From: Psammoneis japonica
Taxonomy: Eukaryota
Direction of reading: 5' to 3'
Length of the DNA stretch: 64,000 bases
NCBI GenBank assembly: GCA_008632985.1
Contig: QPGO01000020.1
Coordinates: 682,001 to 746,000 of the forward strand
The first letter of the stretch is position 1. Each line of letters starts with the position of its first letter. Below, one piece after another: positions 1,441 through 64,000 of this stretch. The notes beneath the pieces are model-generated. The model was given only the letters and a program-made list of their open reading frames with translations, searched no databases and was not told the DNA's origin. The position numbers and the translations under genes were made by a program.

Positions 1441-1546
1441 AGGACGACATCCCAAAGAGTGTTCATGACCAGTGACATTCTCGTCAAACATATGAATGCA
1501 TGCTTGTAACAAGAGATGTATGAATTCCTAATAAACGAACGCCACT

Positions 1547-3925: not shown

Positions 3926-4141
3926 GGTCTATCTATGACCTAGAGTTGTTGCTCTTTCGGGGTGTTTGGAAACGCAGTGGCATTTCGTCGTTTCATTTTT
4001 TTGCTTCAAGCGCAATCTGAACCTCGACGTCAACGCGATAGAGACGAAAGATCGCAACGTTGAAGTTCAAAATTCAGGTCTTACGTAGCCCTATCCCGTA
4101 GAAATGTACGGGAAGCACGTTTGGCGCGAAACGCACAAATA

Positions 4142-9605: not shown

Positions 9606-9709
9606 CTGTACATTGAAGGGTTTCCGCTAGTTGACCGTAGCACCATCACTCTTGTTACTACAGTAGGTGTTATATCATCTAAGAACCGCTGTCAAAACCG
9701 GCCTTCTTC

Positions 9710-15214: not shown

Positions 15215-15241
15215 GGAGAGAGAGAGAGAGAGAGAGAGAGA
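15215..15241. repeat. (GA)n microsatellite
   Basis: Direct reading of the GA run. Confidence 0.9.
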
Positions 15242-19222: not shown

Positions 19223-19599
19223 GGTCACTTCAACAGCGTTTGTTGTTCAAAAACACAAGAAGAAGTGCTCTTGTCAACGTTTTCTCGGCCGAAAGAAAGA
19301 GCAAGATCGCGAAATGATACACTTCAAGACGGAATCCGGAAGAGAAGAAAAGATACGTCACAAGCATTTTCTGCACATCCCAAACTTGAAGATTCCATGT
19401 TTAGCTTATGTGAAGTACGATGACTTATGTATGTACAATTCAACGTTCGATTTACATACAGAAAAGCGCGGGAAATCGCTTGCGCAGATCGCGCGCAATT
19501 CCATGCTCCTTGCGTGCGCCACACTTTCAACTTTGATTCCGCGTCATCGCTCGTCCCCTCATTACAAGTAGCCGTGTTCAAGTTAGCGACGATGAGAAA

Positions 19600-25300: not shown

Positions 25301-25959
25301 TCTTGTGTGAGGTCTGATGACTCAACGTGACAGTCTGTGAATTGGTGGTTGGGAGACATGTGCAACTTTGGCACTCACCTCTTCTCACATGTTTTTGCAG
25401 ACCATGACATGACAAGTGGGATGCTGTCCAGTTGCCACGAGTGCTTCAAACAAAGCACAACAATCCAAGAAGTCCAAGGCTTTGTGCAAGACACACAACA
25501 TCACATGCTTTGACCCGCTGGAACAGCATCTGAATTTTCTCTCTGGTGTGGCCAAGTTGCACCATTTGGAGCTTGTTCTTGTCTCTGCCATGGCGTGTGT
25601 GATGCAGCAAGTGCATGGAAAAGCAAACAGCGAATTTGGTTTTGGGGGGCTTTCTGGTCACACACCAGTGTCTTGAAATCAAGCACAGTTCTCTTGCCAC
25701 CAGCAACAAAGAAATGAAGTTGTTTGAGCAAATGCCTCCATCAATGTGGCAAAAGAATCTGTTGCCAGTTGTTTGCTTGATTGACAAGTTGCTTCCCACA
25801 ACAAATGTGCGCAACATGTTTCCGTGCTTGACAAGAGCATGACTTGTCAGTGATTGAAATTTTCACATGTGTGCTGATTGCATCTACAGATCTTCAACAC
25901 ACACAATTGTTGGCTGTGTTTCTTGGCAGTCATTGAGTCTCAAGCAAATCTTTTTTGCT

Positions 25960-27500
25960 TGTTTTTTAAGCAACATGTGTGGCTCATTCTGTCCACATTT
26001 TCAACACTTGTTGAGAACAGTTTCATTTGTTTTTTTCCCTTCCATTTGTCAGATCTCTTCCTTTGTTTGAGTTGCCTGTGTGGCTCACATGAGAGTTTTC
26101 TCTGTGTGCTGCAGTGTGCTGGTTCAATCTGTTGTGACAAAAGGAAGTGAGCTCAGCAACATGTTTCTGAAAGGCACTCCAGCAAGCTTTGCGCAATGCA
26201 TCAATTGACAAGACTCTTGAAACACAGCACCTCATGAGACATTGCTCTTTGACAAAGCCATCATCATCATTGCAGAGCTGATTTCCAGTGCTTGAAGCCC
26301 AGCAGAGAGAGCTGCCTGCCCCACTCACCAAGTCCTGGATCAAACCCTCCTTTCTTGGCCAGCTGGCGCTGACTGTGCTTGTCGATTCTTGCTGCTGCTC
26401 ATGCTCCATGTTCTTCCATGAAGCAGATGCTTCCTGGACCATTGCAAAGTGCTCAGCTTGAAGCTGCACATTGTTCCATGCGACAGAAGAGTTCCAGCTG
26501 GCTGTCTTTGTTCATTTTTTTGCTGGCAGCATTTTCTGCAGTTTGGCCAATCTTGGAGGCATTGGCTGCTTGAAATTGCCTCTTTGCAGACAATGTGAAC
26601 AATTGAAGCCATGCTCTGATTTGATTTGGTTGGAGCTGGCATGTTCACAGGATCTGATGTCCAGCTGCTTGCGGCTCCTCAGGAACTTGCACAAATTTTG
26701 GACACCTGACAACTGCCCAGGACACTCGCTGCAAGTCACAGAGGATGGCATTCAAGCCATTGATTGAAACTTTTGAATGAATTGACGCAGACAAATTGAG
26801 TCAATTTGATTGTCACAGATGATTGTGACAAGCAAGGATTGCCGTGCTTGCTTTTGTTTGTGACATGGAAAACAAAACCCAAGAAAGAGTGCATGTGCGC
26901 CTCTCTCTGTCACCATCCAAGTCATGGGTGTCTGCAGAATGCACTCCACTTTGGACCTTCTTGCTGCAGTGTCCAACACAGGAGAAACAAAGAAATTGAA
27001 TGAAAAGTTCAGATGACAATCAAAGGCATTGAATGAAGATGCCTTTCTTTGGGGCACACACCTCGTCCTCATGACCACAATGATGTTTTAACACACTCTC
27101 CAGGCATTCCTCACACTTGGTGCCAAATGTTGCCACCGCTGCAACCAATCCCATGGCGGACTTGAGTTGTGTTGTGTGCCTGCATTTTGGAAAGAAAAAG
27201 AGTTGATTCCATGTGTTGTGAGCATTTTTGTCAAAAACAAGTGCGGCAATGTCCACGCGGATGTGACCCAAAAGCATTGTGTTGAGTCACCTGTGCAGCT
27301 CATTTTGTTCTCATTTTGAACTCTTGTTGAGAGCTGCTTCATTTGTTTCCCCCCACCCCTCTGTTTGTCAGATCTCTGCCTTTGTGTTCAAGTTGCCTCT
27401 GTGGCTCATTTTGTCCTCATTTTTGACCTTCAGGAACAGCTTCATTTGTTTTCTTTTCTTTCCATTTTGTCAGCCCTCTGCCTTTGCTTTGCTCTGTCTC
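25960..27500. repeat. Degenerate ~110-bp direct repeats at ~25960-26090 and ~27290-27500 flanking a 1.2-kb decayed segment
   Basis: Shared cttgttgaga...ttcatttgttt...tttgtcagatctct...gttgcct.tgtggctca. Confidence 0.65.
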
Positions 27501-27621
27501 TGCTGTGCCTGTCCTCATTTCATGCTGGATGCTGCACAACTCATCCTCCAATCTGACACTCACCAACAACAATGGTGCGCCCCTGTCACAATTCACTTTG
27601 TTGTCCTGGCTGCTGGATGTG

Positions 27622-27645
27622 CAACAACAACAACAACAACAACAA

Positions 27646-27696
<51 letters not shown>
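27622..27696. repeat. Compound microsatellite (CAA)n(CAG)n(CAA)n
   Basis: Direct reading. Confidence 0.95.
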
Positions 27697-27699
<3 letters not shown>

Positions 27700-28424
27700 T
27701 GCTCTCCAAAAACATTTTCAAAAGCATCTTCAGCATTTTTCTTTCTCCATTTTGGCCTGAACCCTGATGACAACTTTGGGAAGCACACCCCCAGTGCTGC
27801 AGGAAGAGAAGTGCTGGGAACAGCAGGAAGAGCAGCTCAGATTTAAACTTGCAAAGGCATGGTTTTTGCATCTCATGAAGTGAGCAATGGCACCACTGCT
27901 TGGAAAGCCAGCCACTGTTGCTGCAAATGAAGAGACAATGGCCAGAGTGTGTCAGCCATGCATCCTCAGTTCCAGGGTTCATGGGGAGTCTTCCTCTGCT
28001 CTGGACAGAACAAGACTTGTCAGACAGAATTGGAAGGATTGCATCTCCAATTGGACATTCTGGTGAAGCAAAATCAATGGGAATCCATTTGTGAAGAAAT
28101 TTTTGAGAGGGCACCCTTCTTTGGAGAGCAAACATCATTGAACACTTTTCTCTGGGCAAACTTGTTGATTGACGGTCCTTGTTGTTGTGCAAGTGATGCA
28201 CAGTTCAAAGACAAGGAAGAGCAGAAAGTGGAGCAACCACCTGCACTGGCTCCATTGGCAGACATGCTGAGTCACAAGTCTGGGTTGGATCCAACAACAC
28301 GCAACTGGAGAGTTGAGTGAGACACAAAAGCCTTTGCAGTCCAAGTTGCGGAGGGTGGGCCAACTGTGGGATCAGAAGCGTGCCAGTCTTGTGGCCTCCA
28401 TTTGAACTCTCACTGCCTGCCCCA

Positions 28425-29205
28425 TTGCTCTTCTGTGCAAGCACCCGCTGGCAACCCCTTGTGTGTTTCTGTGCGTGTTCTCACACTGACGATGTTGCCA
28501 TCATCAGACAGTGTTGGCTTGGCTCCAACAGGCCCATTCTGTCCATGTTCACCAGTGGTGCACCCTTGTTGCAGCATGACAAGCAAAGTTCATCAGTGCA
28601 AAATGACAAGTGTTCTGCACAGGCTCCATTGCAAATTCTGCGTGGATCCACAGATGCTGCTGATGATCTGCGTGTCACTTCCCCAGCATGCTTTTGTCCT
28701 TGCCAATCAGTCCTCAACACCACCTCCTTTCCTTGCCATGCAATCAAGTCCTTCACTCTTTGTGGTGCAAGCGCCACTTCTGTGTTGGCCCTTTTCAGCA
28801 AGAACATTGGCTGTCTTTTGGAGTCATTTGATTGTTGTCCATTTGCCACTCCCGTTGGTTTTTCTGTGCAAGATCTGGTGTTGTTTCTACATGTCACCAC
28901 TGACTGTCTGTGTGTCACTTCTCTGGACCATTTTCATCCTTGCCAGTTGGTCTTCAACCACATTCCTTTTCTCCACCATGCAATCAAGTGCTTTGCTCTT
29001 TGTGGTGAATGCGCCACTTCTGTTGCGGCCCTTTTCAGCAAGAATGCAAGTCATCCTGTGGCGCCATTTGATTGTCTTTGGTTTGCTGCTCCCATCAGCT
29101 TCATTGTTTCTGTGTGCCACAAATGATTTCTCTGATGACCTGCTTGTCTCACCTTTAAGGCTCCTTTTGTGGACCATTTTAAAAACCTGTTTGAGTGCAA
29201 TTGTC
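28425..29205. repeat. Dispersed repeat copy 2 (homologous to 16226-17060)
   Basis: Starts tgctcttctgtgcaagc.cccgctggcaacc as at 16226 and has the same internal ~240-bp duplication. Confidence 0.85.
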
Positions 29206-31500
29206 TGCTTTTTTGCCCGCTTGATTCAATTGTTCTTGCTCAACTTTCTTGAGCCTCTTCCACACACAATCCACACTTCTAAGATTTGTCTGTTGGCCGC
29301 TCACAAAGCTTCATTCTCTCTGAAGCCCTGTGTGCTGATCAAAGCTTTCAGGATCAAGATTGAGCAGATGTGATGACTCTAGTGCACCACACGTGAAACA
29401 GATGGAAACTTCGGCCACGGACACAAAAGCCAGTTGGCAGGGCCCTTTTGATGAAGAACATGATTGGCAGAACTCAGGAGCTGCTCATTTGTGCCAAAGG
29501 GCTCCAAATCAACATCCTGGAGTTCATCGTCATTTTGTTGTCAACTTGTGCACGGCACTTGTCCTCTGCAAGTGGCGTGCCTTCTTGCTGTTTGGAGGCA
29601 GGATCTTGGGCACAAGGGTGGGTGACAAAAGTGCACTCCATTGGAACAAAAGTCACTTGAGCAACCATGTCATGATGAAAACACCAAATTGTCCTCCTGA
29701 GGGTGCAAGGCAGCACTGCTGATTGCCAACAATGCACCCAAGATGAGCTCATTGACATGTGTTTCCATTTGCGGCACAACCTTGCTCATGAACAAATCAC
29801 CTGAAAAGCCAGTGTGCCAGACTCAGACTTGCTTGATGAGTTGAGTTTAAAGATTGAGTTGCAAAGCCTTCCCATCCATGAAAATTCAAAATGGGCTTGG
29901 CCACCTCTCTTGCTTTTGGATGCAGGCCAGACTTGCCAAGACATGAAAGGTTGAAAAAGGGCAGGCATTTCTTGAGTGATCATGTTGCTGGAGCCACCTG
30001 AAAAATGGCTTGGTTGTGCCACAAGCCCTTCTTGCTGAAGTGCCACCTGCACAGCTGGGGTGCAGCGCTGGTGCTGTTGTGTGCCTGTGCTTCTCATGGG
30101 GCAATGAAAGACTCAAAAATGAATCATGCAGGGCCAGTTTGGTCTCAATGCTTGCACTCAGAAGCAAAATTGGGTTGATGATGGACCTCTGATCATGGAT
30201 TCTCAAGCACCGCTGGCAAAGTGGCTGAGCTCTGTTCCTGAGATCATGTGCGTGCTTCCTGCTTGGCAAGCTTTGAGCTTGGTCTTGTTGATGAGCAGTG
30301 CTCAAATGTGCCGTGCATTCAATGAGGGGTTTTGCACCATCCTGCTGCTGAAAACAATGAGCTTGAAATTTCTGTCATTCTTGCTCTTTGTCAAGTTTGT
30401 GACAGCCAAATGGTGGCGGGTGTGCTGAAGAAAGCAGTGCTGCTGGAGTCCACACTGCTCTGCAGGACACTGCAACTGAGGTGCTGGAAAGCATCTGAAA
30501 CAAGACCCAGACAAATCGTGATTTCTTGGCGGGACAATGATGACACACCTTGCAAGCAAGTTCCAAAACAAGCAAAGCAAATGCATTTCTGTGCTTCCCA
30601 CATTGTCCATGTTTTTGGCCAAGAAGAACCAAGAATTGAGTGGCCGGCCAGCTCCTCCTCCAACTGATTAAAAAGCATGAGAAATGATGCATTTCTTCAT
30701 GCAAGAACCACATTTGTTTTGGCTTGAAAGAATTCACACATGAGCTCTGGTGCATCAGGAACAAAGAGCTCTCCAAACAGCTTGTGAGCATGAAATGCAG
30801 CAAGTGCCATGTTCTTGCGGATGTGCTGACTGAGTTGTTTGAGACATGCCTTGATGGAGAAGGGACATGAGCAGACCAAGAATCTCCTCATCCCTCACCT
30901 TGCAAAGAAAATGAAGCATGCTGTCATGCATGCATTCATTCTGGTGGCTCAAACAGCCCACAAGTGCGCCCCACATCGTGAAGGAGGAGAAGCAGCCGCC
31001 AAAGAACACACACTTTTCATCTTGCTTGCACTGGTTCTTGGCACTTGGGCACAACCTCCCAGCAAAGCATGCATGCTGAACCAAATCACATGATTGAGTT
31101 TGGAGCTGAGCAAACAAGTCAACGCAACTTTGTGCTGTGTGCTCCACATGTTGTTGTTCTTGCAGAGATGTGGCACTTCTTTCTCTTGCTTTTCTTTTGC
31201 GTGTCATGCAAATGAGCTGGAAGAAGAATGCTTCTTGTTTGTGGGTGTTCCTTGGATAGATTAAGCTTTAGGTCTTGGCGGCTCATTGATGGGATGTGAT
31301 GCTGCTGTGGTTGGGTTGCGGCGCCGTGCTGCTACAGTCAGAAAAAAAAATAGCGAGACGGACGAACGACTGAGTCTGTCAGCTGGCGGGCTTTGCGAAT
31401 ACAGCTTGCCCGCGCGCAATTCGCGTGCAATTATTTGCCACGTCATCGAGTGTCACCTTTTTTTCTCATTTTCTCACAATCCTCGCAAATAAGTGACACC

Positions 31501-35268: not shown

Positions 35269-35328
35269 AACTCTACACTTGCTCACGTGCCCACCAACAA
35301 CTCGAGCGACACTGAACACTGTGAGACC

Positions 35329-35820
35329 ATGAGCGAAGCAGAAGCGACCGCAAGCAACAGCAAATGCAAGGTGTCCACTGCTCCACTGGATGGCCGTGTC
35401 TGTGATTTGTGCAGAATGTCCAGCCATTGGATCCAACAGTGTTCCAAAAAGAAGCGAAAAAAGAAAAAGACATCACATTGCTGTGCCTGGCGTCAACCCT
35501 TCTGCAGTGGACATTGCATGTGCAAGAGAGTTGCAAAAGATCAGGCCTCCCAAGTGCTTTTGTGGAGAAACGTCCTGGCTGAAAAAGGCCAGGAAAAGTG
35601 AGGTTGGCAGTGAGCAATCGCTGGCCAACGGTGTGTGCTTTTTCTTCTGCGCCAAGAAATGAGACGACGTGACCAAGTGCCGATTTGCAAGACCTGTGCA
35701 AGACGAGATCATGCCAAAGAATCAGCAACTGGTGTGTGCTTTCTTTGCCAAGAATGGGAAATGCAAAAAGGGCGACAATTGTGTGTTTGGCTGCAATGGG
35801 AGCTTGAGGACGCCAACAGC
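35329..35820 (+). pseudogene. Zinc-finger gene remnant (CCHC knuckle + GRF-like finger + CCCH finger)
   Basis: CDLC...HWIQQC; after a frameshift, CFCG...FFFCAKK*...CRF; then CAFFAKNGKCKKGDNC. One frameshift and one in-frame TGA; no Tyr. Confidence 0.7.
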
Positions 35821-38199
35821 CCACCATGAGAAAGATGATGAAATGCAAAGTGGCAGTGGCCACAGTGGCAATGAGAAGCAAGCAGGCATTGATGACAGCA
35901 GTGTTGCCAAAAAAGAGGTGGCCAGCAATCGCACAGTGGCACCAGCAGCACTGCCAGTGGCAGCTGCAGTGGCAGTGCGTTCTCTTCATCAAGCGCAGAC
36001 ACTGAGGACGATGATCAGCAGCTCCAGTCATTTCCTGTTCCCAAGCTGATTCAATTGCTGCAAGCCTTCCTGTCAAATTGTTGTGACATTCTTTGCTCAA
36101 GTGGGCTGTTGTGGTCTGATGATTTCTTCATTGACGTCGATCCTTGTTGCTCATCTTGGACAGAAGTTGACCCACATGCCCTTCTTTTTCTTTTCTCTGG
36201 TTTCGGCTGCTCCGTGTAAAGCAGGATGCTTGCTGCCTTCCGTGGAACCATGGGAACAGAGCGGTTGAGAGTGGCCACCTGCACGCACTTGCAAGAACTG
36301 ACAACACACACCTTTTGGAAGCGGTGGTTGCAATGTTTTGCAATGAAAGCCAGTTAAATCACGGAGGCCACGGTGATCAACCATTGGAGAAAGGCAACTA
36401 AAAGCCACGTTGACACCCGGCGCACTTTCAATCTCACTGTTTTAAAATCAAAATGTGGCTGCAATGAAGACAAAAAGAAGTGAGTGCGCGGGGTCATTGA
36501 GGCACAAGCACGGCACTTGCCAACTGTGGAGCTGCAGTCATCAGCACGAACTGTTCCGCTGGCGCTCCTTTCTTTGCTGCACACATGTGAGTGGCAGTCA
36601 TCCTTCTGCAGAGAGGGTGAGTTGCAGCCCAACACTGCAAGACTGCTTGGCCATTGTCAAATTTTGGTCACTTGAAGCCAGAGCGCCAATTGGAGTTGCA
36701 TCTTGGGTCTGCTAGAAGCAATCTGATGCCTTGCAAGAGAGGAGAGTGCTTGAGGTGCACTGCGAGCATCCAACCTTCAAAATGGCCTTTTCACTTGCCA
36801 CATGTCTTGTTAAATTGATGAAACTGAAGCTGTGGTGCAGATGCATCAACTCATGCTCTCAAGAAACTTGAGTGATTTGAGTGAAAGGTGCTTGGTGGAG
36901 CTTTTGGAGAGGTGCAAGCTTCCAACGATCACATTCATCAATCAAGCTTTGAGCAAGATTCACTCAATGAATGTTCCGTGAGTGCAAGTGATCTGGCACT
37001 GGAGCAACGGGAACCTTTTTTGTGCAGGTTGTCCTTGCGCCAGCAATGCTTTGCAAGCAACATGGGTTGTCAAAGCTTGGAACACTGTTGTTGCTGCAAC
37101 CAACCAAGCAGCGGATCCTTGAGACAGCATTGCAGATTGTGGTGCTTTGTGAGCAGTGCAGTGCTCAATGGGGCTGGAACTTGCATGCATGGCTGCTGCC
37201 ACATGTTGGGCAGCATTGCAACAGCTCATCAAAGCTGTGGCAGGTTTTTTCTTTCTGGGCACAGCTGACCTTGTTGGGCTTCATAAATCTTGAGTGCAGA
37301 TTCAGCTGCTGATCTCAATGCCATCTTGGCGCAATGAGCTGCAGAATCTTGGAGCACTCATGCAATTCAACAATTGAGGATTGAAGCTTTGCATTGTTGT
37401 TTTCACCTTGGCTTTGTCTTCACTGAATGATGCAGTGTTGAGGCTGCATTTTGTGCAAGGCAACCCATGATCCTGAATGTCTTGTGACACAGACACCTGT
37501 TGGAGGTCAAGGGCACCATTCCAACGGAACAAGGGAGAGTGCAGAAATGCCAGCGGCGCTGTGTCCTTCAACCCTTTTGACTCAACAGAGCTTGAGCAGT
37601 TGCAAGAATTCTCTTGCTGCATGACAAACCACTTGGAAGACTCTGATGACTGTGCTCTTGGGGCGGGGACTTGGGAAGACCACAGCAAGCTCTTTGAGCA
37701 CTTCTGCTGTCTGCATGCAGCCACAATGAACTGAGGTTGATGGGGCATCAATCCTTGTTAAAAGCCAAAGCCTTGCACCCCAATTGTGGTTGGATGCCTT
37801 GTGAGCCAGCTTGTGCAGCTGACCAAGATCACATCCTAGAGAAGACAAACAAAGTGCTTGGATTCAGATGGCTTGAATGGCAACCATGAGATGGAGGGAC
37901 AACAAGAGAAACACCATCACCAACATGAACCAGCTGTGGAAGACCTTGCTGACAAACAGCTCCTCCTTCTTGCATGCCTCCATTCACATCGTTTGTCCAA
38001 ACAGAGATCGAAGCTGAAAAAAGAGTGCAAGTTTTAAAGTGCAACTCAGTGAGATGGTCACAATTGCAAACACAACAAAACAGATCTTCAAACTCAGCTG
38101 ATGTGACAGGCCGGCAACACACAGCAGTGTCAAACCTGCAGGAGATCAGACATGATGCTCAGCGAGCAACTCAAACTCAAGCAGTCTGAACCACCTTGC

Positions 38200-39800
38200 A
38201 ACCTTCACCAAAAAGGCTGCCCTTTGGGGTGTCAAGCACACCGTCTCAGTCCACAACATCATGTTGAATGATTTTGGGGCTGCAGGAGGTGGCAGCAGAT
38301 TTTTCCAATGAACTTGCTTCATGTGCTGCTGTGGTGCGCCATTGTCAGCGGGTTGGTGTCAGGAGGTGGCAAACCTGGTGCAGGCTGAATGGGAGCAGAT
38401 GGGGTGGTGACATTCATGGTGGCAAAATTGTGCATGTGAGCGGGGCATTGGAGTGTGGGTTGGGGGCCCAGGTGAAACAGATCCTTGTGTCAATGGACGA
38501 GCGTTTTGCAGGGAAAAATGGGAGGAAGCCTGGTGGTGCTTTTGTGGCAACATGTCAGAAGGTTGAGCAGAGACAAGCAAAAGGGCCAAGGGTGTGGCAG
38601 AGCAACCAGACGGTGTCACAAATTGAGCTGGACAGAGGTGTTTGTGGGTGCGTGAGCAGGAGAAGGTGTGGTCACTGCTGACATCCGGGGTGTTTCCACA
38701 AGGGTGTGCAGTCATGACATGGGATGGTTGGATCACAGGTGAACAGAGTCTTTGTTGGAGGAGGATGGTGAAGGGTTGGGAAGGGAGATGGTGACAGTTG
38801 TGCCACAGTCTGGAGAGGGAGTGCAGGGCAAGACTTGTGTGAGCAGAGAGGAAGGATGGCAAGACATGGTGGAGAGATGGGTTGTGGCGCAGGTTGTGAA
38901 TGGCTTGTTTTGCATGGGAGTGGTCCAGGCATTGGGACAGGCCTCAGAGGTTGTGAGAGAGCTTCGTCAGTGAGAGGGCAGAGAGACAGAGGGAGGAGCA
39001 GCACCTTGGAGAACACAGGTTTTGGATGGGTTGAGGTGGATGCCACATGGGGGGAGCCAAGTTCGTAGAAGCATTGAAGAACCAGGGGAGGAGGGCAATG
39101 GGCAGATGCATTTGTGAAAGTGTGTTGTCAATGTGGGAGCCAGTGGTGGATGGTGGGGAGCAGTGTGAAAGGCAGGTGGGTGCTGGCTTCCTTGTTGAGT
39201 TGGGCGAAGACAAGTGCAAGGGCAAGGCTCTGGCAATTGCAGGGCTTTGGGGGCAACCCTGGGCAATGGCTTCATGTTGGAGGAAGGGTTGCCATTGGCT
39301 GGCATCGTGGCAGTGCCAGCAAGAGTTGGGTTTCTTGGTGTGCACAAGAAGAGGTCAAGAAGGCAAGGGGAGTGGTTGGAAAACAGCGCTGGTGAACAGG
39401 AAGAAGGCTCGAGATGGGGCTGGGTTGTCAAAGGAGAGATGGCACTCGATGCTGCTGGCAAAGGTGGAGTGAACGAGACAGTCCATGACGCCTTTGATGC
39501 CTGCTCCAAATTGACCAGTGGGGAGAAAGTGTGTTTTGGCAAAGGCAGGGCCAAGGACGGCGATGGTGAAACCACCCCGACAGGGCAGAGCTTGGTTGGA
39601 GAGGTCGGAGGGGTCTTTTTTTGTAAGGCGGCGAAGCAGTTTGAGGTGAGGATGGGTTGGATGGGATGAGACAAGACAGGAGAATTTTAAAGGAGGGAAG
39701 GTGTGGGTGGGCAAACAGCTGGGCGTTTTGGTGTTGGTGAGGGCACAGGATTTGAGGAGGTCGGTGGAGTCAGTGTGTTCAATCCAAGGTGCGCCTACCT
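38200..39800 (-). mobile_element. Heavily decayed non-LTR retrotransposon reverse transcriptase fragment
   Basis: Across frames: KKDPSDL, HFLPTGQFGAGIKG, QHEAIAQGCPQSP (QGxPLSP), and SHIDNT at 39124-39135 (YIDD equivalent). Confidence 0.7.
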
Positions 39801-40344
39801 GCCACACATGAGCAAAAAGCCACGACGTCAGCTTTGCGTCAATCTGGCGTGTCGGCCTTGTGACGAACGGCTTGCATTAAGTGGGGTTCTCATTCAACGT
39901 CATTTCGACGCAACGCCATAAACAATCCCAAATGGAATCATTGCGTCGCAGCTGGCAGTCGCTTACGTTGCAGCCCGCAGCTGGTTTTGTTCAGGCGCGA
40001 CTAACGGTGTTCGGCGGTCGACGAACGTCACATTCAAAACACGTCACCTTTTTCTTGCCGTACATTTGTACACATCCATCGAACATTGTTAAATAAATGA
40101 AGCACTATGTTGTCGGTTCAGTTTTAAATAAAATATTCTATACGACGTCATATTCTTTTCTATACTTGCTACAATCTATGAGGTGGCATGATGTGGCGGG
40201 CAATCTTCGTAAAACTTCAAGCAGCAAAATTTTGAACGATCGACCTGACATCACACTCCGTTGATACGACTGTCACTTTTTCCCATCCCACCATTCGCTT
40301 GCTTCTCACAATTCTTGATTGCTTCTGTTTGAAAAGAACAAATC

Positions 40345-41433
40345 ATGTGCAAGGAAACTACTGAGGTCGAAACGGGAGCTCCCGTAGACAAGATCCCCCA
40401 AGACGATGCCACTGCTGCCAGCAGCCGTGCGTCTTCGGGCGTCACCGTCATGCCCAACGTTGCTCTCAAGCGCATGAAGCTTCTCATGGCGTTTTTGGGA
40501 GCATGTGCCATCGGTCTCCTCATTTCCACCATCTACCTCGCTGTCGACCGCGACAATGAAAAGAACAAGAGCAAGGAGGTCGAAGTATCTAAAGTTCAAG
40601 GACCCAACCCCTGCCAAGGCAAGCGCCCCGATTTGCCCAACGTCGCCTGTATCATTGACGAAATGACGCAAACCGGCGAACAATCCGGTGCCAATGTCAC
40701 CAGGGGATACAATGGCGACCGGGAAACCGACGCCGAACCCATCACCACCTCCTACTTTGAAGCCGGCTTGTGCCCCGTCAATGTTCACTGGCATTTGGGT
40801 GCCGAGCACTATTCGGCTGGCGAGTTTGACGAGATTGGCACCGGTCCGCTTGATTTCCACGAAGGCCGTCAGGGATTCCAGTGCAGGTACTACGATGAGA
40901 ATGACCCCAAATTTAATACTCCGTTCAACTGGCAGCACTGCATTGGAATGATGGTTGGTCAAACCTACGAAGTTCACTGGCCCCATTCGGCCGCTGGTGC
41001 ATGCGGTACGCCCTTCCAATACCAGACTCCCTTTTACGATGGTGTCTTTTGCCGTGACGACGTGATTACCAACACGGCTCAGCAGATTGGTGTTCAGTCT
41101 CAAGTCTTTACCATCGTCAATGACGAGGACTACTACTACCCCGACCTGTTCCGCGGCATGATTGTCGATGGAGAGATGGGAACCGACGTGGCCAAGTACA
41201 CGGGTTCCACCACGGGTACTGCCCGTAACAACGAAATTTGCTCTCCCTTCACTCCCATTACCTGGCAGGTGGACCGCAAGTGCCATTTGATTTCGGCCTC
41301 AAGTTTTGACAAAATGTGCAAGGACATGAGAGCCCAGGCCGATAACATGAACGACGATCTTTATGCTCACGGATCTCGAGAGCTTGTGGACGACCAGCAC
41401 GCTGCAAACAACCAGCAGCTTCGTCGGGCTTAG
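40345..41433 (+). CDS. Delta-class carbonic anhydrase (TWCA1-like) with N-terminal membrane anchor
   Basis: CPVNVHWHLGAEHYS, YEVHWPHSAAGAC, IGVQSQVFTIVNDE, YTGSTTG and WQVDRKCH motifs typical of diatom delta-CA; one TM segment near residues 45-65. Confidence 0.93.
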   Translation: MCKETTEVETGAPVDKIPQDDATAASSRASSGVTVMPNVALKRMKLLMAFLGACAIGLLISTIYLAVDRDNEKNKSKEVEVSKVQGPNPCQGKRPDLPNVACIIDEMTQTGEQSGANVTRGYNGDRETDAEPITTSYFEAGLCPVNVHWHLGAEHYSAGEFDEIGTGPLDFHEGRQGFQCRYYDENDPKFNTPFNWQHCIGMMVGQTYEVHWPHSAAGACGTPFQYQTPFYDGVFCRDDVITNTAQQIGVQSQVFTIVNDEDYYYPDLFRGMIVDGEMGTDVAKYTGSTTGTARNNEICSPFTPITWQVDRKCHLISASSFDKMCKDMRAQADNMNDDLYAHGSRELVDDQHAANNQQLRRA

Positions 41434-45805: not shown

Positions 45806-46429
45806 TTACAGTTTCTTTCTCTTGCGTTTCTTTTCATCCTTCATTTTCTTCTTTTTCTTTTTGTCGTCCTTTGGTGATTCTGTTTCTTGCTCGTCTCGCT
45901 TTCGTTTCTTGAGCTTCTTCTGCTTGGTTGGTTTCTTCGATTGTTTCTCATTCTCGCTTGTCTTGTTCGCTTGTGAAGACTCGTCTGCAGCTGAAGGCTT
46001 TCCTCTCTTTTTTCGTTCTTCCCGCTTGGCGGCTCGTTTCGCTTCCAACTTGGCTTCTTTCTTGGCTTTGAGTTTTGCGGCCTTTTTTGCCGCCTTCTTT
46101 TCTAGTTTCCTCTTTTTCTTGGCGTCTTGGTCGCTGCTGCTACTACTGCTACTGCTACGGTTGCTGTTGTTTTCGTCGTCACTATCAAAATTGCGCTTAA
46201 TCACACGTCCGTCTCCGTCATTATGCGAGGAGGGATCAAAGGATCCTTCTCGTACAAAGTTGCGATAGAGAGAATTGTTTGGCAAGTCGCCGTTCTGCTG
46301 TTCCAAAGTAGGTCCTGCAGCAGCATTGGACCACGAGTACTGTCCTGAAGATCGACCTAAGCCACCTCTATTTGATCCAGAACGACTACTCAGTGTGTCG
46401 TGAAGAGCTTGAAGTTTTGACTCCTCCAT
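45806..46429 (-). CDS. Lysine-rich low-complexity hypothetical protein (nuclear/nucleolar-like)
   Basis: Open frame from ATG (MEESK); LYRNFVREG followed by Ser/Asp and Lys/Glu tracts. The start is uncertain. Confidence 0.65.
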   Translation of the reverse strand: MEESKLQALHDTLSSRSGSNRGGLGRSSGQYSWSNAAAGPTLEQQNGDLPNNSLYRNFVREGSFDPSSHNDGDGRVIKRNFDSDDENNSNRSSSSSSSSDQDAKKKRKLEKKAAKKAAKLKAKKEAKLEAKRAAKREERKKRGKPSAADESSQANKTSENEKQSKKPTKQKKLKKRKRDEQETESPKDDKKKKKKMKDEKKRKRKKL

Positions 46430-46659
46430 TCTTTGCGGCACGTACTAAATTTTGCACAAATTGTAATGCTTTTGCCGTTGTTGATGTTGAGAGAGAGAGA
46501 GAGAGGAAAAGAGCTAAAAAAGTGACAACGAGAATTTTCTGTGGCTGATGATAAGGCATTGAATCGTGTGAAGAGACAGGTGGTGTATCGGTCGACGCTC
46601 AGACAGTCTGTTCTTCGCACGCAATCAAATAGAAATCCTTGTGCGCGGATTTTCGCGCG

Positions 46660-49646
46660 ACTTAGACACTCCCCATGTTTTGAAATGTCTTGTTGATTGG
46701 CCAAACACGTGCTTGCTCATGCTACAAACATGACCAACCGTGTGCCAACTGTGTTTGCTTCCACAAATGTAAGAACAAGGAAGGACTCCCAACTTGCGGT
46801 GCAAGTGACTGGAGCTCGGACAAGAAGACACGGAAACTTCCAACCTCCCCGGAAGCTAGTCCACTTCAACCGAAAATTTGTCAATTCATCAATGACACCC
46901 CTGATGACACCGACAAACAAAACAAAAACAAGGCCAACACCGAAGCCAACAAAGAGAACATCGTGCCCAATGATCAGAGGACGGATGCTGACGAGGGCAG
47001 AAACGATGAGGAGGCCACTGCCGCCACAAGGGACAGTGAGCGGTCGGAGGACAGATTGGGCTCGGAGGGAGCCATCATTCCGTCAATTGACCACACCAGC
47101 AACACACCCAATGACTTCAATTCAGACGCAGAAAGGATCATCCACGAGACACGCGGCGAGACATGTCACCTCAGTGACGGTGCTGAACTGGATGGTGGGA
47201 CACTGGACGACAAAACGTGGCAAGAGTGTTGGCGCCGGCCAATGCCCTGTCCATCGCAACGATGTGACGTGCCAAATGGCTCGGTTGGCAAACGATTCAT
47301 TGCAACGTTGGCAGAACTGCTGGATGGAGTCACGAGGCGGAAGTGGAACTCGGAAAGATTCGCAGCACATCAGATGGTCATTTTACAGCGAGACCACAAC
47401 GCAAAAGGAGCCAAAGATGTCAGAACTTTGTTCAGCACGCGCATGGACGATTGGGACGCGGGCAAGCACAAAATGCTGGTCCAATCAACGGAGCGGCCAC
47501 TTGAAGCAAACCTAAAAACCATTCAAAGGGAGGGAACGCCTGAGCAGCGCGCCAAGACATTCAACAGAATGGTGCTCCGAGAGTGCCTGCGAGGAGCGGT
47601 TGGGTGCATCTCTGAACGTGAAAAAGGTGGGATTCTATCGCCGGATGACATCGATGAAAAGACTGATGACACAGTGTTTGAAGTCCTTCAGAGGAAACAT
47701 CCGAGCCAAAGGATCCCGGACGAAGACCACTTTCACAAATTCAGCGAACCACCTGAACTCCAGGACATGCTCAGTTGTGAGCATTGGAGCATCCTGATCA
47801 TCCGTGGAAACTTTGGAACTGCCTTCATCTTGTTCAGCAAGGAAGGCGTCACGCAGGGCGATCCACTTGGTGTGGCAGCATGCGGGCCAGGCCTTCTTCC
47901 ACCAGTCCGTGAAATGAGTGAGCGTTTCAAAGACGCACTCACGCCATGGTGCGCCGACGACTCCGCAGCAGCAGGAAATTTCGTGACACTGCGAGAATTC
48001 TTCCTCAGTCTCCAAGCCGAAGGCCCCAAACATGGCTGCCACCCCACCGACAACTCCAAGAACATCCCAGCAGTCCCAGAGCGCAACCTGGAAAATGCTG
48101 GAACGCACTTTGGAGATCCAGGCTTTACCATCAAGTCTGGCAGCCGTTGCCTTGGAGGCTTCATTGGAGAGTCCGACGCGCGCGACCAATGGCTGGCGGA
48201 AAAAGCCAAGTCATGGACCTCGGTCGTCCAGGGACTCGCCAAAATCGCGATTCATCACCCTCAGACCACCTGCGCCGGTCTGCAGAAGTCCCCACAACAC
48301 CAGCGGCAATGCACCCAACATGTGGCAAAGGACTGCGGCGAATCGTTTGCCGACGTAGAACATGCAATGCAGCGCAATTTCCTGCCGGCTTTGACAGGTG
48401 AGACCCCAGCAGACGACGTCCCGAGACTGGCCCCATCCGCCCTCCCAATCAAATTTTTGGGACTGTCCATCCCTCGTCCAACTGAGTCCGCAGCTCACAA
48501 CTGCAAAGTGAGTGCTCTCACGTGTTCCCACGTGATCGACTCACTCCGCGGCTGCTCCCAGTTCTCATCCGCAGTCCACAAGGACACCGTGCCCGAAGTG
48601 AAACAAGAAGCAGCCGATCGAAAGGTTGCAGCACACGGGGAGACCCTCAAAATGATCCTCAGGACCCTGCCCGACCTCCAGGCCAGAGCTGTCAAGCACA
48701 GCACCAAGACAGGCGCGTGGCTCTCAGTGCACCCTTCGACGCTGAATGGCGCGGAACTCTCATGCCAAGAGTTCCGTGACGCGCTTTTCCTGTGGCATGG
48801 CAGTGCTCCACCGGACCTCCTGGAGCACTGCGATGGATGTGGATGCAAACTCACAATGAGCCACGCCCTTCAGTGCAAGAAGGGCGGCCCAGTCATCTCA
48901 CGACACAATGAAGTCCGTGACAACCCAGGCAACCCAATGGGCAAGGCTTGCAAACCTTCCCGCGCACACGATGAACCTCCAATCAACCCCGCTGGTCGCA
49001 GCGCAGGAAGCTCAAGCACCCCCACTGGCTCCCCAGGAAACACTGGCTCCAACAAGTCCAAGGATGACGATCGCGGCGACCTTCTCGGCATGTGATTCTG
49101 GGATGGAAGGACAGACATGGTGACGGATGTTCGCGTTCCCGACACGGATTCGAAGCCACACCTGTCCAAAACACCAGAGGATGTCCTGGCAATGCACGAA
49201 CAGGAGAAAAAGCGCAAGCACCTCAAGCCCTGTCTTGAGCAACACCGTCATTTCACACCCTTCGCAGTGTCATGCGACGGACTCTTTGGCAAAGAAGCCA
49301 AGGCAATGCTCCGCAAGATGGCCTCGAGGCTGTCAGACAAATGGCAAAAGCCATGCTCTGAAGCATGTGGCTGCGTCAATGTGAGAATGAGCACTGCCAT
49401 GGTCCGGGCGACTCACCGTTGCCTCCGGGGATCCCGCATTCCCGCCTCTCACATCAGCTCCAGACGACCCCAGTGGGAAGACGGCGCTGGTCTGTCCCTG
49501 TGCAGACACTGAATGACCCCGCCCAACCGACTCGCACCCTTCCAGACAACATGCCAACCAACCATCCACCTGCAACATCGATGTCGTGCCCAGAAGTTGA
49601 CAAAAACCCATCACCACCCCGAAAACGGCACCACAACTATTTCAAA
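46660..49646 (+). mobile_element. CRE-like non-LTR retrotransposon (RT + C-terminal zinc knuckle/restriction-like endonuclease), internally deleted and hypermutated
   Basis: Single frame 46690-49512 with one TGA at 49093. Motifs: EGVTQGDPL, W(C)ADD, LGGFIG, HALQCKKGG..SRHNEVRD, RGDLL...FW...DVRV.DTD, EQEKKRKH, FTPFAVS.DG, CLRGSR. The first RT subdomains are missing near 47770. Candidate 9-bp TSD TTTCGCGCG at 46651 and 49647. Confidence 0.9.
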
Positions 49647-50014
49647 TTTCGCGCGCACAGCCTACAATCTTGCGCGCAACAACTACCCCTTATTCGTACG
49701 ACTGCATTGTTAACTGTGTAATGCCCACTTTTCTCCCCTTGACACGCCTTGTGCCACTTTTGTGTGCCATACGACATCTACATACGCTAACACGGCTTGT
49801 GCCATGTCGTGCCAAAAAATTCAAGGCGAAACGATGGAGAGTAAATTCGCGCATTGCGCATGCCGAAGATCGCAAAAAGACGTTGCGACATCAACACCAT
49901 CCTCATCAACACCACCGCAACGGGGTAACAGAGAGAATACTCAATACACAGCGAACGGGAAAGATCCTTTGCCTTAGCGACTCTACAATATAAATTGAGA
50001 TTTCTTATTCTGAA

Positions 50015-51439
50015 ATGCGTTCTGAAGCATTGACGTTGTTGCTGTTGCAGCTCTGTGTCGTTTCAACGACTGCCTTTGTGACACCCCATGCAACACCAAA
50101 ACATACCGCCGATACTTTGTTATTGTTTGCACGTAAGAAAGCAGCGAACGATAACAATGAGGACGAGTCAAACGAGGTGGATCCTGCGAAGCGTGCCGCA
50201 CTGGACGGAGTTCTACAACAGATTGAACGCAGTTATGGACGTGGATCTATAATGAAGTTGGGAAATGCAGAGAATATGAGGGTAGACTGCATTGGCACGG
50301 GGGCGTTGACACTCGGTACGTTTCACCTGTGCGCAAGTATAATGTAGCGCTTAAAGGGATATGCATTCATGTGAGCTCAGTACGGATCTGTTACTTCTTC
50401 TTATGTGTTAGATACGGCGCTGGGTGGTGGATACCCAAAGGGACGTGTCGTTGAGATTTATGGGCCAGAGAGCTCTGGGAAAACTACACTCGCGCTACAC
50501 GCGATTGCCGAATCTCAAAAGCTTGGAGGAACCGCCGCCTTTGTAGATGCAGAGCACGCTCTTGATCCATCGTATGCCGGTAGCCTCGGTGTGGATATCG
50601 ACTCGCTCCTCGTGTCTCAGCCAGACTCGGGAGAAATGGCTTTGGATATCGTGGACCAGTTGGTGAGGAGCTCGGCCGTTGATATCATTGTGGTGGACAG
50701 TGTAGCAGCTCTAGTACCCCGTGCCGAGCTTGAAGGAGACATGAGTGATTCTCAGATCGGTCTACAAGCTAGACTCATGTCCAAGGCAATGAGGAAAATC
50801 ACGGGTTCTCTGGCTCTTAGTCAATGCACAGTCATTTTCCTGAATCAACTGCGTTCCAAGGCAAGTTCTTTTTCCTTTTTGTACAGCATCTCATTGCTCT
50901 CCAATTATACATGCCGTGCTCAAATTATCTTTTTGTTTCTTACCTAGGTCGGTGTCATTTATGGATCACCCGAGGTTACATCCGGAGGCAACGCCCTAAA
51001 GTTTTATTCATCGGTTCGATTGGATACGCGACGAAAAGAAATTCTCCCCGACAATGCCGGCATTCGCATCAAGGTCAAGGTGGTCAAAAACAAGGTGGCT
51101 CCTCCGTTTGAAGTTGTCCTTCTCGATGTATTATTTGGAAGCGGCATTGATACATTGGGCAACATTGTAGATGCCGCTTTGGATTTGAACGTGTTGGATC
51201 GCAAAGGTTCTTGGTATGCATACCAGGGATCAAATCTTGCTCAGGGGAGGCAAAATGTTGTCGAGTTGCTCAAACAAAATGAGGAATTGAGAGAGCAACT
51301 TGAAAGCCGAGTCAGGTTGGCTCTATCCGACATGGCGAATCCAAACGAAGAGTCGTCCGAGACTACTGCAGGTGAAGAGGCAAAGGTGGGTCGGACCTTG
51401 CCTAGCGAGATTATTGAAGAGGACACTTATCTCGAGTAG
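50015..51439 (+). CDS. recA: Plastid-targeted RecA recombinase; exons 50015-50315, 50412-50860, 50948-51439
   Basis: Signal peptide plus [60 protein letters not shown] and [11 protein letters not shown]. The second intron is GC-AG. Confidence 0.96.
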
Positions 51440-55084: not shown

Positions 55085-55401
55085 NNNNNNNNNNNNNNNN
55101 NNNNNNNNNNNNNNNNNNNNNNNNNNNNNNNNNNNNNNNNNNNNNNNNNNNNNNNNNNNNNNNNNNNNNNNNNNNNNNNNNNNNNNNNNNNNNNNNNNNN
55201 NNNNNNNNNNNNNNNNNNNNNNNNNNNNNNNNNNNNNNNNNNNNNNNNNNNNNNNNNNNNNNNNNNNNNNNNNNNNNNNNNNNNNNNNNNNNNNNNNNNN
55301 NNNNNNNNNNNNNNNNNNNNNNNNNNNNNNNNNNNNNNNNNNNNNNNNNNNNNNNNNNNNNNNNNNNNNNNNNNNNNNNNNNNNNNNNNNNNNNNNNNNN
55401 N
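55085..55401. other. Assembly gap (N run)
   Basis: 317 Ns. Confidence 1.
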
Positions 55402-61251: not shown

Positions 61252-64000
61252 TTTTGTTTGGAGAGCTCGTGAGCCAAGACGACGTCATTCTTTCTGGGTT
61301 GGCACTGCCAGTGACAACAAACTAATTCCCACAATCCACAGATTGAATGACTGATTTCAGACCAACCATGCAAGCTTGAATGTGTCTCAACAGAGGTGCC
61401 AAAGCCAGCCATCACACCGTTGTTTGCCACACCCATGTGTCGTCTCATTTTCTTGCTCAGCGAGTCCAGTGCTGGGGCGGCGATGCAGCGTTGGTGAAAC
61501 ACTGGCTGCCCTGCTGCTGGCTTCTTCTTCTTCTTCTTCTTCTTCTTGCACACACACACAAGTGCAAGCACACACACCTTTGTCTGCCCCCCCAGCACAA
61601 TCAACAGCTTGTTGTCGAGCTTCATTTTTTTGGCGCATGTCAGTGAACCCATGTGGAGCCCACCTGCTCATTTCCGTGCAGCTCCATGATGCAATCTTGA
61701 AGGTCCGTCAAACAGCACACATGAGCTCAGAAGAAATCACAGTGGCACAGCAGCAAGGGATGAGGCTGATTTGAAGCCTTTCCCAACTCTCTCGATGTTG
61801 ACTGCAGCGCTGCTTTCACACGCGACAATGTTGCAAGATTTTGGCTTGGCAAAACCCACAATTTTTATTTTCATCATCACACTCCTTCAACAGCTGTTGT
61901 TTGATTGTGGCTCTGGCTCATGAAAAGAGGAGTTCAGCGGCGCTGTCATTGCTCACACATTTCTCAATGCAGAGACTCCAGCCATCCTTTCTGAAGCAAT
62001 CCAAAGGATCCAACTGTCCTTCTGAAGCAGCACAAAGGCTGCACAACCATCCTTTTGCACCTTTTGCAGCATCACAAAGGCTCCCAGCCACCACAGCTGG
62101 CAGCAACACAAAGACTCCAACCACCACAGGAGGTGGCAGCAGCACCAAGACTTCAACCATCTTTTCTGAAGCAGCAGTGCAAAGGCTCCAACAGCCCTTC
62201 TGCAATGGCACAAAGGCTGCAACCATCCTTCTGCAGAGCAGTGCAAAGGCTCCAACAGCCCTTCTGCAGTGGTGTGCAAAGGCTGCAACCATCCTTCTGC
62301 AGCAGCACAGATGCTCCTCCCAACCACCACAGCCAAGTGGCAGCAATGCAAAGACTCCAACCACCACAGCCAAGTGGCGGCAGTGCAAAGGCTCCAAGAA
62401 CTGTCCTGTCTGAAGCACCAGAAAGGCTCCAACACTGTCCTTCTGCAGCAGTGCAAAGGGTCCAAACTGTTGCAAGTGGCAGCAGCACAAAAGCTCCAGC
62501 AACCATCACAAGTGGCATCAGTGCAAAGGCACCGTGTGCCATTCACACGTCCACAGAAACAAAGCCACAAGAACAATTTGACAGCTCAACCACCGTCGTT
62601 CACATGTCAACAAAACTCCTGCAGTTTGTGCAAGATGGGCCACTCTCCTGAGTCATCATCATGAAAAAGCTGTTGGCATCTCATGCACATTTTTGACATT
62701 GAGCACAGTGTGGAGACAGGTGCCGCACGGCAGGTTGCCCTGTTTTTGTGCACTGCCTGAGTCGTTGGTGCTCGTTGAAATGATGACCTGCCTTGTGCTG
62801 TTTGTCTGAAGAGCTTGCATCAGCCAAAATGTCATTTTTTCTGGGTTGGCACTGCTGGCAGTGACAACAAACTAATTCCCGCAATCCACAGATTGAGTGG
62901 CCAGTTTTGGACTAACCAAGGAAGTGCCACAAAGCCAACCAGCACATCACAGCACTGTCTGGAGAGACAAGACACCCCCACGCACCAGCCACATCATTCA
63001 CATGTCATCATTTTCTTGCTCAGTGAGTCTTTTGGGGTGACAGTGCATTGTTGGCAAAATGCTGGCTCTGCCACTGGCTTCATTGTGGGCAGTGTGCACA
63101 CCCCCACAAACACACATCTTTCAGCCCAAAACAACCCTCCACATGAAAGGGCAGCTTTTTCACATCAGCAAAACAAAAAAATTGACAGGACTTTGTGCAA
63201 CACCGGCTGGCAACACCCAGCAGACACAACTGGGGGCAACAAGGAGGCAACACTTGGCACAGGATTTGTTGTGTTCTTTTTTTTGCTGCAACCACAGTGC
63301 CACACTGTGCAGCATTGGCAAAGGACTTTTGCACACTCAGAGTGCACAGCTCATCAGCAAAAGCAGCAACCCCCATCTTTGAGTTTGCGCTGGCCACCAT
63401 CAACACAAAAGGAGACAAACATTTGTGCTCTTTCTGGCACACTGCATCAAGAGTGAAAAGGTTGCAGCTCAAAGCAGCAAGCTCTTCATTTGTCAGCAAG
63501 CACAAAAAGGGAGAACTCACAAGGCTTGAAAACATGGAACAAAGATCAAATGGAGCCAGAAGTTGGCTCTTTTCTGCACCCTTGAGCCCAACAACTGCTG
63601 AAGCAGTGTTTTCACCACACAAAGTGAAGAACTTGGTTGGCCAATGGAAAGAAGGGGGTCATCAAGAGCCATTGAAAATGGACAGAAACAGTTTGGAAAT
63701 GTTGCAAAAGATGGTCTTTGACAGTGACATGATCTGCGGTGTGCACAGAATTTGCGCTGGGTGCTGTGTAGAAAACTTGCTGAATTGAGAGAAAATGGCT
63801 GGAAAGGATGACAAGCTGCCAAGCCAGAAGAAGTTGCTGCCAGTTGTTTGCTGCTAAAAAATGTTGCTTGTTGGGCTGAATGATGCAGTGCCATTGGTGG
63901 AGTTGCTCAAAATGGGCTGGTGAGAGGACCCAGCAAAATGGCTCACACACCTTTGGAGAAGGAAGGAGGGCATCAGCGCCAGAGGGTGTGCAGAAACACA
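61252..64000. other. TpA-erased block 6 with direct repeats (~61190-61620 and ~62740-63160)
   Basis: TA nearly absent; ctgggttggcactg...cagtgacaacaaactaattccc.caatccacagattga occurs at ~61294 and ~62841. Confidence 0.85.
61965..62530. repeat. Degenerate ~30-bp minisatellite (ccttctgcagcagtgcaaaggctccaac-like)
   Basis: caaaggctcc/caaagactcc cores recur more than 15 times. Confidence 0.85.

Follow-up and report, generated by a model that had tools for sequence, protein, structure and literature searches.

How can a retrotransposon copy lose almost every tyrosine codon and almost every TpA step, and still read as one long open frame? The question is raised by a 64,000-nucleotide stretch of the Psammoneis japonica contig QPGO01000020.1 (hereafter the window), in which a single reading frame of 941 codons runs from 46690 to 49512 on the forward strand with one in-frame TGA, at 49093. 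A reading made from the sequence alone had described this locus as a CRE-like retrotransposon that records the direction of mutation codon by codon, and its premises could be confirmed. The first open reading frame (ORF), 46690-49095 (+), encodes 801 amino acids with exactly one Tyr (TAC, 46723), 31 Cys and 31 His; the catalytic motif of the reverse transcriptase (RT) is PWCADD (47944-47961), with TGC at 47950; and the other motifs that had been named all lie where they had been placed. We propose that the locus is a dead copy of an R2/CRE-type element that underwent TpA-specific hypermutation after selection had ended, most likely after insertion, in a process confined to the repeat. We put the probability of this reading at roughly 85%.

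The direction of change can be read against homologous proteins. A search over 5.8 billion protein clusters returned 12 relatives (P0001-P0012) at 33-45% identity, 11 of which were aligned, and a second search, restricted to shorter proteins, added 99 relatives, none above 53% identity. Columns in which at least 60% of the homologues agree were taken as consensus; with both ORFs counted there are 475 such columns, and the window copy agrees with 322 of them. None of its 14 consensus tyrosines is kept: Cys (TGY) stands in eight of these columns, His (CAY) in four, and Arg and Phe in one each, whereas homologues scored leave-one-out keep 128 of 155 (Fisher 3e-10) and Tyr makes up 1.7-2.9% of the first 12 relatives. 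Leu has become Pro in 9 of 60 columns, compared with 4 of 729 in the leave-one-out homologues (Fisher 3e-8). The codons are uniform within each class, since all nine Leu-to-Pro changes are written CCA, all six Val-to-Ala changes GCA and both Ile-to-Met changes ATG; CCA supplies 27 of the 54 Pro codons of the 801-residue ORF. Consensus Trp and Cys are largely retained (11 of 12 and 12 of 13 columns). The sequence-only reading had supposed, for CRE-type proteins, that Cys or His stand where Tyr is expected and CCA-encoded Pro where Leu is expected, and the homologues do carry the expected residues.

The 153 mismatched consensus columns include 113 that can be reached by one base change. They comprise 19 TA>CA and 14 TA>TG changes, 14 changes of CpG to TpG or CpA, 12 other A:T>G:C transitions, 11 other G:C>A:T transitions and 43 transversions, so that both of the TA changes supposed beforehand did occur. 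The control was the relatives' own DNA (79 loci), with the same classification carried out on the 14 loci that have long intact frames: there the TA>CA/TG class accounts for 27 of 819 single-base mismatches, compared with 33 of 113 in the window copy, an enrichment of about nine-fold (Fisher 4e-17). At 76 of the 79 loci the observed/expected ratio (o/e) of TA in the matched region is 0.39-0.69, and TA loss is therefore not a trait of the family. Read from the sequences alone, the direction of change is from TA to TG and from TA to CA, in a copy no longer under selection, because the aligned homologues have WYADD in 11 of 11 cases, their loci have normal TA and the mismatches of the window copy are enriched in the TA class. 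No active homologue was seen with CADD or the prolines. Undoing the TA-class changes, for which a sharp gain had been the suggested test, would raise the agreement with the consensus from 322 to 355 of 475 columns; the rise is clear and not dramatic, since what still differs is probably for the most part lineage divergence.

Dinucleotide counts place the loss at a single step. The TpA-erased tract, 46724-49638, holds 7 TpA in 2,915 bp, with an o/e of 0.05 for TA, 1.30 for CpA, 1.62 for TpG and 0.78 for CpG; over 46690-49512 there are 8 TpA in 2,823 bp. In the parts of the window outside the islands described below, TpA o/e is 0.59 overall (range 0.50-0.71) and the CpG background is 0.96. Set against the o/e norm of its relatives, the window copy is short of about 60 TA and 33 CG and carries about 52 CA and 66 TG in excess, and the GC content of the element island is 55.7% compared with 47.5% for the background. 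Since CpG o/e is 0.78 while about 90% of TpA has gone, erasure of TpA is separable from CpG decay, outpaces it and is faster per site. The 19 CA and 14 TG outcomes alternate along the element (20 runs, 17.1 expected), and this interleaving shows that both strands were hit. It argues against single-strand editing, whether of sense RNA or of first-strand cDNA, and against deamination that is processive and coordinated by strand; a palindromic step in duplex DNA, struck at random on one strand or the other, would give such a pattern. Strand-coordinated clusters of outcomes were found neither in the islands (runs-test z -2.2 to 1.6, like background) nor among the 33 inferred events. On the left as far as 46663 and on the right from 49638 the flanks have normal TpA density, and the few TpA left in the copy are found mainly towards the 5' end (46723, 46770 and 46857, followed by 47384, 47513, 47636, 48126 and 48356).

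Six islands with sharp boundaries, the element among them, make up 44% of the window and hold 62 TpA in 28,490 bp, compared with 1,425 in 35,193 bp elsewhere; their TA-free gaps reach 2,085 bp. The others lie at 4141-9609 (CpG o/e 0.20), 13302-17897 (0.35), 22775-31257 (0.18), 35275-39624 (0.30) and 61324-64000 (0.20). In these five, TA o/e is 0.02-0.05, CpA/TpG o/e 1.66-1.84 and CpG o/e 0.18-0.35, and the retrotransposon copy (46724-49638, 0.78) is the only island with CpG nearly intact. Transposon Pfam domains were absent from some 80 stop-to-stop ORFs of the five other islands, which gave sub-threshold or low-complexity matches only. Long spurious ORFs crowd the islands in every frame, because a change of TA to CA or TG cannot make a stop codon. 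Islands 2 and 3 share a paralogous segment of 830 bp (16226-17059 and 28425-29205; 76% identity) with internal tandem repeats of about 240 bp. The two segments differ by 125 transitions and 21 transversions, 146 differences in all; among them are 36 CA/TG double mismatches at neighbouring positions, the footprint of independent outcomes at a palindromic dinucleotide, although TA and CG ancestry are indistinguishable there. TTAA, typically tttTAaaa within a T/A tract, accounts for 23 of the 62 TpA left in the islands (for example at 6273, 8670, 17455, 29180 and 36443), compared with 54 of 1,420 background TpA (Fisher 1e-15). The islands keep TTAA at 53% of its density in the background, and ATAC, ATAG, ATAT, GTAC and GTAT are absent. 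This strong bias may reflect which sequences the mutator prefers. In its right half (38001-40000), island 4 has a strong GC skew (+0.35) and 53.6% GC.

The copy itself is dead. It is a 5'-truncated, internally deleted non-LTR (long terminal repeat) retrotransposon that lacks about 200 RT codons and carries one nonsense codon. What remains of the N-terminal part of its single ORF (46690..47779, +) starts within the Cys-rich N-terminal motif of the family (46714-46770) and holds the only Tyr codon, at 46723. The alignment of 11 homologues reaches about 70-100 amino acids further upstream, residues 64-460 of homologue P0001 align by tblastn to 46705-47991, and cover of the element by the contigs of run X1, introduced below, begins in the bin 46669-46835. 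Non-LTR copies are often 5'-truncated, and this one is no different. An internal-deletion junction between 47779 and 47780 (47773..47796, +) has removed about 205 alignment columns (523-728) of the RT fingers and palm. Seven X1 contigs carry the deleted sequence and are unlike the window just before 47780; their loose-end consensus, read by eye, is ..ERFTFNSC where the family has ARFxFNCY. The RT palm and thumb follow, and then the CCHC motif (47780..49092, +), with SKEGVTQGDP at 47836-47865, PWCADD as above, CDGCG..H..C at 48829-48876 and RHNEVRD at 48901-48921. The in-frame TGA (49093..49095, +) splits the frame into ORFs of 801 and 131 amino acids. The second of these, 49117-49512, which contains the KRKHL and KPCS motifs, is in frame with the first with no frameshift, and a single tblastn high-scoring pair spanning 47782-49506 confirms that the frame is continuous across the stop. 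The C-terminal region resembling a restriction-like endonuclease (RLE; 49096..49512, +) includes DVRVPDTD (49126-49149), HEQEKKRKH (49195-49221) and the natural stop (49510-49512), and aligns with the C-terminus of every full-length homologue. The 3' untranslated tail (49513..49845, +), whose end is uncertain, is TA-free to 49637; the 10 TpA in 49638-49788 lie in sequence still common to other copies, X1 contigs still cover 49675-49841, and eight contigs diverge at 49825. As a target-site duplication, the 7-bp TTCGCGC found at 46652 and 49846 is not claimed, about 0.8 such matches being expected by chance. No other copy of the element was found within the window by tblastn or blastn.

To which family the copy belongs is best judged from its intact relatives. 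All 11 aligned homologues have a Cys-rich N-terminus, an RT that contains SKEGVTQGDP and, without exception, WYADD, the CDGCG..H..C motif, and a conserved C-terminus in which acidic and Lys columns do not vary; the CDGCG..H..C motif and the downstream invariant D/E/K columns are present in 13 relatives. Pfam RVT_1 matches four of the six homologues scanned, two of them above the cut-off, and a Pfam scan of the window ORF recognised no RT. In the PDB, a profile of ten homologues matches only R2 proteins, over the RT (9nl3, 9dou, 9nl2; E 5e-7 to 4e-4). The C-terminal 300 amino acids of 13 relatives gave an AlphaFold model of low confidence (pLDDT 46), with which the top seven Foldseek matches in the PDB were all R2 proteins, weakly (E 0.009-0.4, TM 0.24-0.29). 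The next matches were bunyaviral cap-snatching endonucleases, which are PD-(D/E)XK nucleases. The element thus appears to be a non-LTR retrotransposon with a single ORF in which the RT is followed by a CCHC motif and a putative RLE-like C-terminus, an R2/CRE-type architecture whose likeness to R2 is weak at the C-terminus. R2 and other RLE-bearing non-LTR elements (R2Bm 8gh6/8ibw; R2Tg 9dou/9nl3) have a single ORF with RT, CCHC and a PD-(D/E)XK-like C-terminus, an architecture that the window element would share; identity to R2 is low, at 15-20% in the fold alignment, and the window element adjoins no rDNA or spliced-leader target according to Rfam. The label CRE-like would accordingly extend as far as the RT and the C-terminal CCHC/RLE-like region, which are R2-like. 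The CRE clade comprises CRE1/2, SLACS and CZAR, and the insertion into spliced-leader RNA genes by which it is defined was not found: Rfam at its gathering score recovered no RNA family in the window, and ARAGORN no tRNA. One full-length relative, P0010 (1,148 amino acids), has a CUT DNA-binding domain at its N-terminus (PF02376, E 2e-23), ahead of the RT, and this may be a targeting module. Another observation on the family is that one database relative bears a diatom genus in its source name.

The family is multi-copy in this organism. The contigs of run X1, which come from one sample, possibly the same as that of the window assembly, include 1,202 pieces at least 80% alike to the element (134 at 99% or more, 207 at 95-99%, 416 at 90-95% and 445 below 90%), with a summed depth, not to be taken as a copy number, that climbs from 526 to 3,274 toward the 3' end. 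Other copies differ from the window copy at TA-type sites. The window copy keeps TA at 46857, where ten other contigs read CA; its CA at 47073-4 is TG in other copies, and its CA at 49591 is still TA in others, as erasure in place would predict. The letters specific to the window are found at several places in X1 contigs, at about single-copy depth (33-55, compared with 43-107 for the flanks). The TA-erasure signature is also not unique to this genome, because a metagenome contig and four database proteins show the same replacement of Tyr by Cys or His. The contig (L063, 1,159 bp) holds, at 322-1017, a relative 36% identical to the element which keeps none of seven consensus tyrosines (four His, two Cys and one stop), has WCAGN in place of WYADD, and has a TA o/e of 0.11 compared with 0.58 in its flank. 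The four proteins, the short relatives P0036, P0019, P0072 and P0090, keep at most one of six consensus tyrosines, yet 59-84% of their other columns match.

How would such a state arise? In the process that we envisage, hypermutation would convert about 90% of the TpA of the copy to CpA or TpG, one site at a time and on whichever strand, through A:T>G:C transitions at this palindromic step. It would be confined to the repeat and leave the flanking genes alone, and the same process would have erased TpA from the five other islands. The specificity for one dinucleotide, the use of both strands and the confinement to islands are directly visible in the counts given above; that the process acted on DNA in place, and that it served as a host defence aimed at repeats, is what we infer from them. 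The most likely chemistry would be enzymatic adenine deamination at TpA, as has been proposed for Bigelowiella natans. Modification of thymine would leave an equal signature. Dinoflagellates swap thymine for 5-hydroxymethyluracil preferentially at TpA, and one can imagine that the T of TpA is modified here too (e.g. a TET/JBP-type enzyme might oxidise it to 5-hydroxymethyluracil) and that mispairing or faulty repair then turns it into C. TpA being palindromic, T>C on one strand is A>G on the other, and sequence cannot separate them. We regard thymine-directed chemistry as doubtful, though worth keeping in mind; it competes for the chemical step only, and the one published proposal, itself no more than that, is adenine deamination by an ADAT2-like enzyme (bioRxiv 10.64898/2026.01.13.699255; main text).

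A different question is when the TpA were lost. Erasure could have preceded insertion, either in a master copy or in an RNA or cDNA intermediate edited during retrotransposition by a host enzyme, in the manner of APOBEC3 on retroviral cDNA or ADAR on double-stranded RNA, the product then being copied in trans. The family is multi-copy, as the 1,202 contig pieces attest, and at least one other copy shows a Tyr-to-Cys change (the FNSC before 47780, read by eye), so that part of the erasure could predate insertion; in addition, the main text of the B. natans preprint notes the preference of ADAR for U before the edited A (bioRxiv 10.64898/2026.01.13.699255). Editing of a single strand would, however, leave only TG or only CA, and here 19 CA and 14 TG are interleaved, with both dinucleotides in excess over the relatives' norm. 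Nor do the window copy and the other copies agree at 46857, 47073-4 and 49591, TpA survives at both ends of the truncated copy, including 46857 where ten other contigs read CA, and five islands without detectable retroelement coding bear the same signature. On balance we consider erasure before insertion unlikely. The sequence-only reading had called the changes post-insertion; that they followed the loss of function is borne out by the WYADD of the homologues and the normal TA of their loci, and their following insertion is likely on limited evidence, namely the TA kept at both edges and the differing CA, TG and TA letters of other copies at three sites.

Hypermutation of a dead copy, most likely in place, remains the reading that we favor, and some observations weigh against it. 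Beside the copy with FNSC, these are that 120 of the 153 mismatches are not of the TA type, many of them probably lineage divergence, given that the nearest homologue is only about 45% identical; that the variant places listed within 46,690-49,845 (22 of more than 1,100) comprise four of the TA type at three sites, six of the CpG type and 12 others; and that run X1, possibly being the window's own sample, offers no independent support for the window sequence. The last point leaves some room for a sequencing or assembly artefact, such as base-calling errors at modified TpA in repeats. We think this very improbable: the changes form a coherent set of alternative CA and TG outcomes, the X1 contigs carry the window letters at about single-copy depth, the unrelated metagenome contig and four family proteins show the same Tyr-to-Cys/His pattern, and the main text of the B. 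natans preprint calls its signature from Illumina data (bioRxiv 10.64898/2026.01.13.699255). Selected avoidance of TA in a still-functional family that tolerates CADD and the prolines (an escape from a UA-cutting RNase or from TA-targeting transposons) can call on a 941-codon frame open but for one stop, and is scarcely credible given the WYADD of 11 of 11 homologues, the ordinary TA at 76 of 79 relatives' loci, the missing RT columns, the nonsense codon and the RT that Pfam fails to find, all the more so as the frame is open in a dead copy because TA>CA/TG changes remove TAA and TAG and never create stops, which makes it look like an intact gene.

The genes of the host have been spared. Those for a light-harvesting complex (LHC) protein, a delta carbonic anhydrase, RecA, a GST and a MYND protein all lie outside the islands, and the element is placed between a Lys-rich ORF and the RecA gene. 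The LHC gene (18620-19246, -) encodes an Lhcq11/FCPI-16-type fucoxanthin chlorophyll a/c protein, the mature part of which is, by eye, about nine-tenths identical to PDB 6l4t/6ly5, structures from the diatom Chaetoceros gracilis. The delta carbonic anhydrase (40333-41430, +) had no match in the PDB. RecA (50015-51439, +) is intron-bearing and has a signal-peptide-like N-terminus (…STTA|FVTP); contigs of a further run, X2, skip its GT..AG intron and so look transcript-derived; they hardly cover the element, and a third run, X3, gave no matching contigs. Together, the LHC protein, the delta carbonic anhydrase and RecA point to a host with a red-type complex plastid, a fucoxanthin alga and probably a diatom, in whose nuclear genome the element would lie. 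The Lys/Ser-rich ORF upstream of the element (45806-46441, -) has long K/E/S runs, with low-complexity ORFs overlapping it on the other strand. An assembly gap of 317 N lies at 55085-55401.

Targeted hypermutation of mobile DNA is well established, with the repeat-induced point mutation (RIP) that fungi show and the deaminases of animals as its familiar forms. A TpA-specific version that raises GC has been described once before, in a chlorarachniophyte preprint of 2026. The window presents the end state of such a signature on a retrotransposon whose homologues give the direction codon by codon, and it illustrates that the process can reach saturation over nearly half of a genomic region and is separable from CpG decay. 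A tetranucleotide preference may exist as well, and could serve as an enzyme fingerprint. The observations also have a practical side. TA-erased repeats present long open frames in six reading frames and lose recognition by Pfam, which misleads gene callers and repeat annotators alike; a simple scan of TA against CpA plus TpG would reveal such islands in other algal genomes. Taken one step further, the locus may reflect a RIP-like defence in reverse, that is, a repeat-targeted editor in diatoms, or at least in this alga, which works at the DNA level on either strand and converts TpA to CpA or TpG until the repeat is TA-free, faster than and independently of methyl-CpG decay and with a preference of its own (TTAA in T/A tracts spared). 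Taken as a whole, we lean towards this proposal, with little to spare. If it were true, the "open" pseudo-ORFs of algal repeats would be explained, and together with B. natans it would place the process in two distant branches of the stramenopiles, alveolates and Rhizaria (SAR), as would befit an old, widespread and overlooked eukaryotic defence.

Several known systems resemble what is seen here. Deamination of methyl-CpG yields the same TpG and CpA products from a palindromic dinucleotide on either strand, and it is seen in the five other islands; it acts on CpG, whereas the window element has lost about 90% of its TpA with CpG o/e at 0.78. Hyper-editing of double-stranded RNA by ADAR makes the same A>G change with T/U before the edited A. 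ADAR works on RNA, however, and only a sense-strand record could reach DNA, while here both strands are recorded and the non-retroelement islands carry the signature too. To our knowledge, ADARs are confined to animals. Fungal RIP is alike in being a hypermutation of repeated or mobile DNA that proceeds by transitions only, has a dinucleotide preference and leaves sharply bounded islands. Its direction is the opposite: RIP changes C:G to T:A mainly at CpA, creates TpA and stops and lowers GC, whereas the element island loses TpA and stops and gains GC. The window element accordingly does not show the C:G>T:A signature that raises TpA and lowers CpA and TpG.

Bigelowiella has a green-type plastid with chlorophyll a/b antennae and not fucoxanthin proteins, and B. 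natans is a chlorarachniophyte (Rhizaria), whereas the host of the window is a fucoxanthin alga, probably a diatom. The likeness between them is nonetheless the closest that we have found. In mutation-accumulation lines of B. natans, the preprint's main text reports 231 mutations in an integrated nucleocytoplasmic large DNA virus (NCLDV) and virophage, of which 230 were either A>G or T>C and fell without exception at TpA, at roughly 1,000-fold the baseline rate; 324 coding sequences low in TpA were enriched for RT and DDE (DDE transposase) domains, and the enzyme put forward is an ADAT2-like deaminase (Mettrop et al., bioRxiv 10.64898/2026.01.13.699255). In both cases, as far as that text goes, only TpA is changed, TpG and CpA are the products, and the change is confined to regions of foreign or mobile DNA while host genes are spared; the window shows the same loss of TpA with gain of CpA and TpG, in discrete regions that leave host genes untouched. 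The two differ in degree, since the NCLDV and virophage inserts of B. natans keep many TpA (Rho 0.45 for the NCLDV, by the same text), whereas erasure in the window is near saturation, with o/e of 0.02-0.05 over 44% of 64 kb. The main text of the preprint makes no mention of diatoms, CpG or flanking context (bioRxiv 10.64898/2026.01.13.699255), and in the open-access full-text literature, outside which most subscription journals fall, we found no report of TpA erasure in diatoms or other stramenopiles, the B. natans preprint being the only account of the process. This kind of process has thus been described once, in another lineage; what the window adds is a different algal lineage and an unusually clean record, preserved at the level of the codon.

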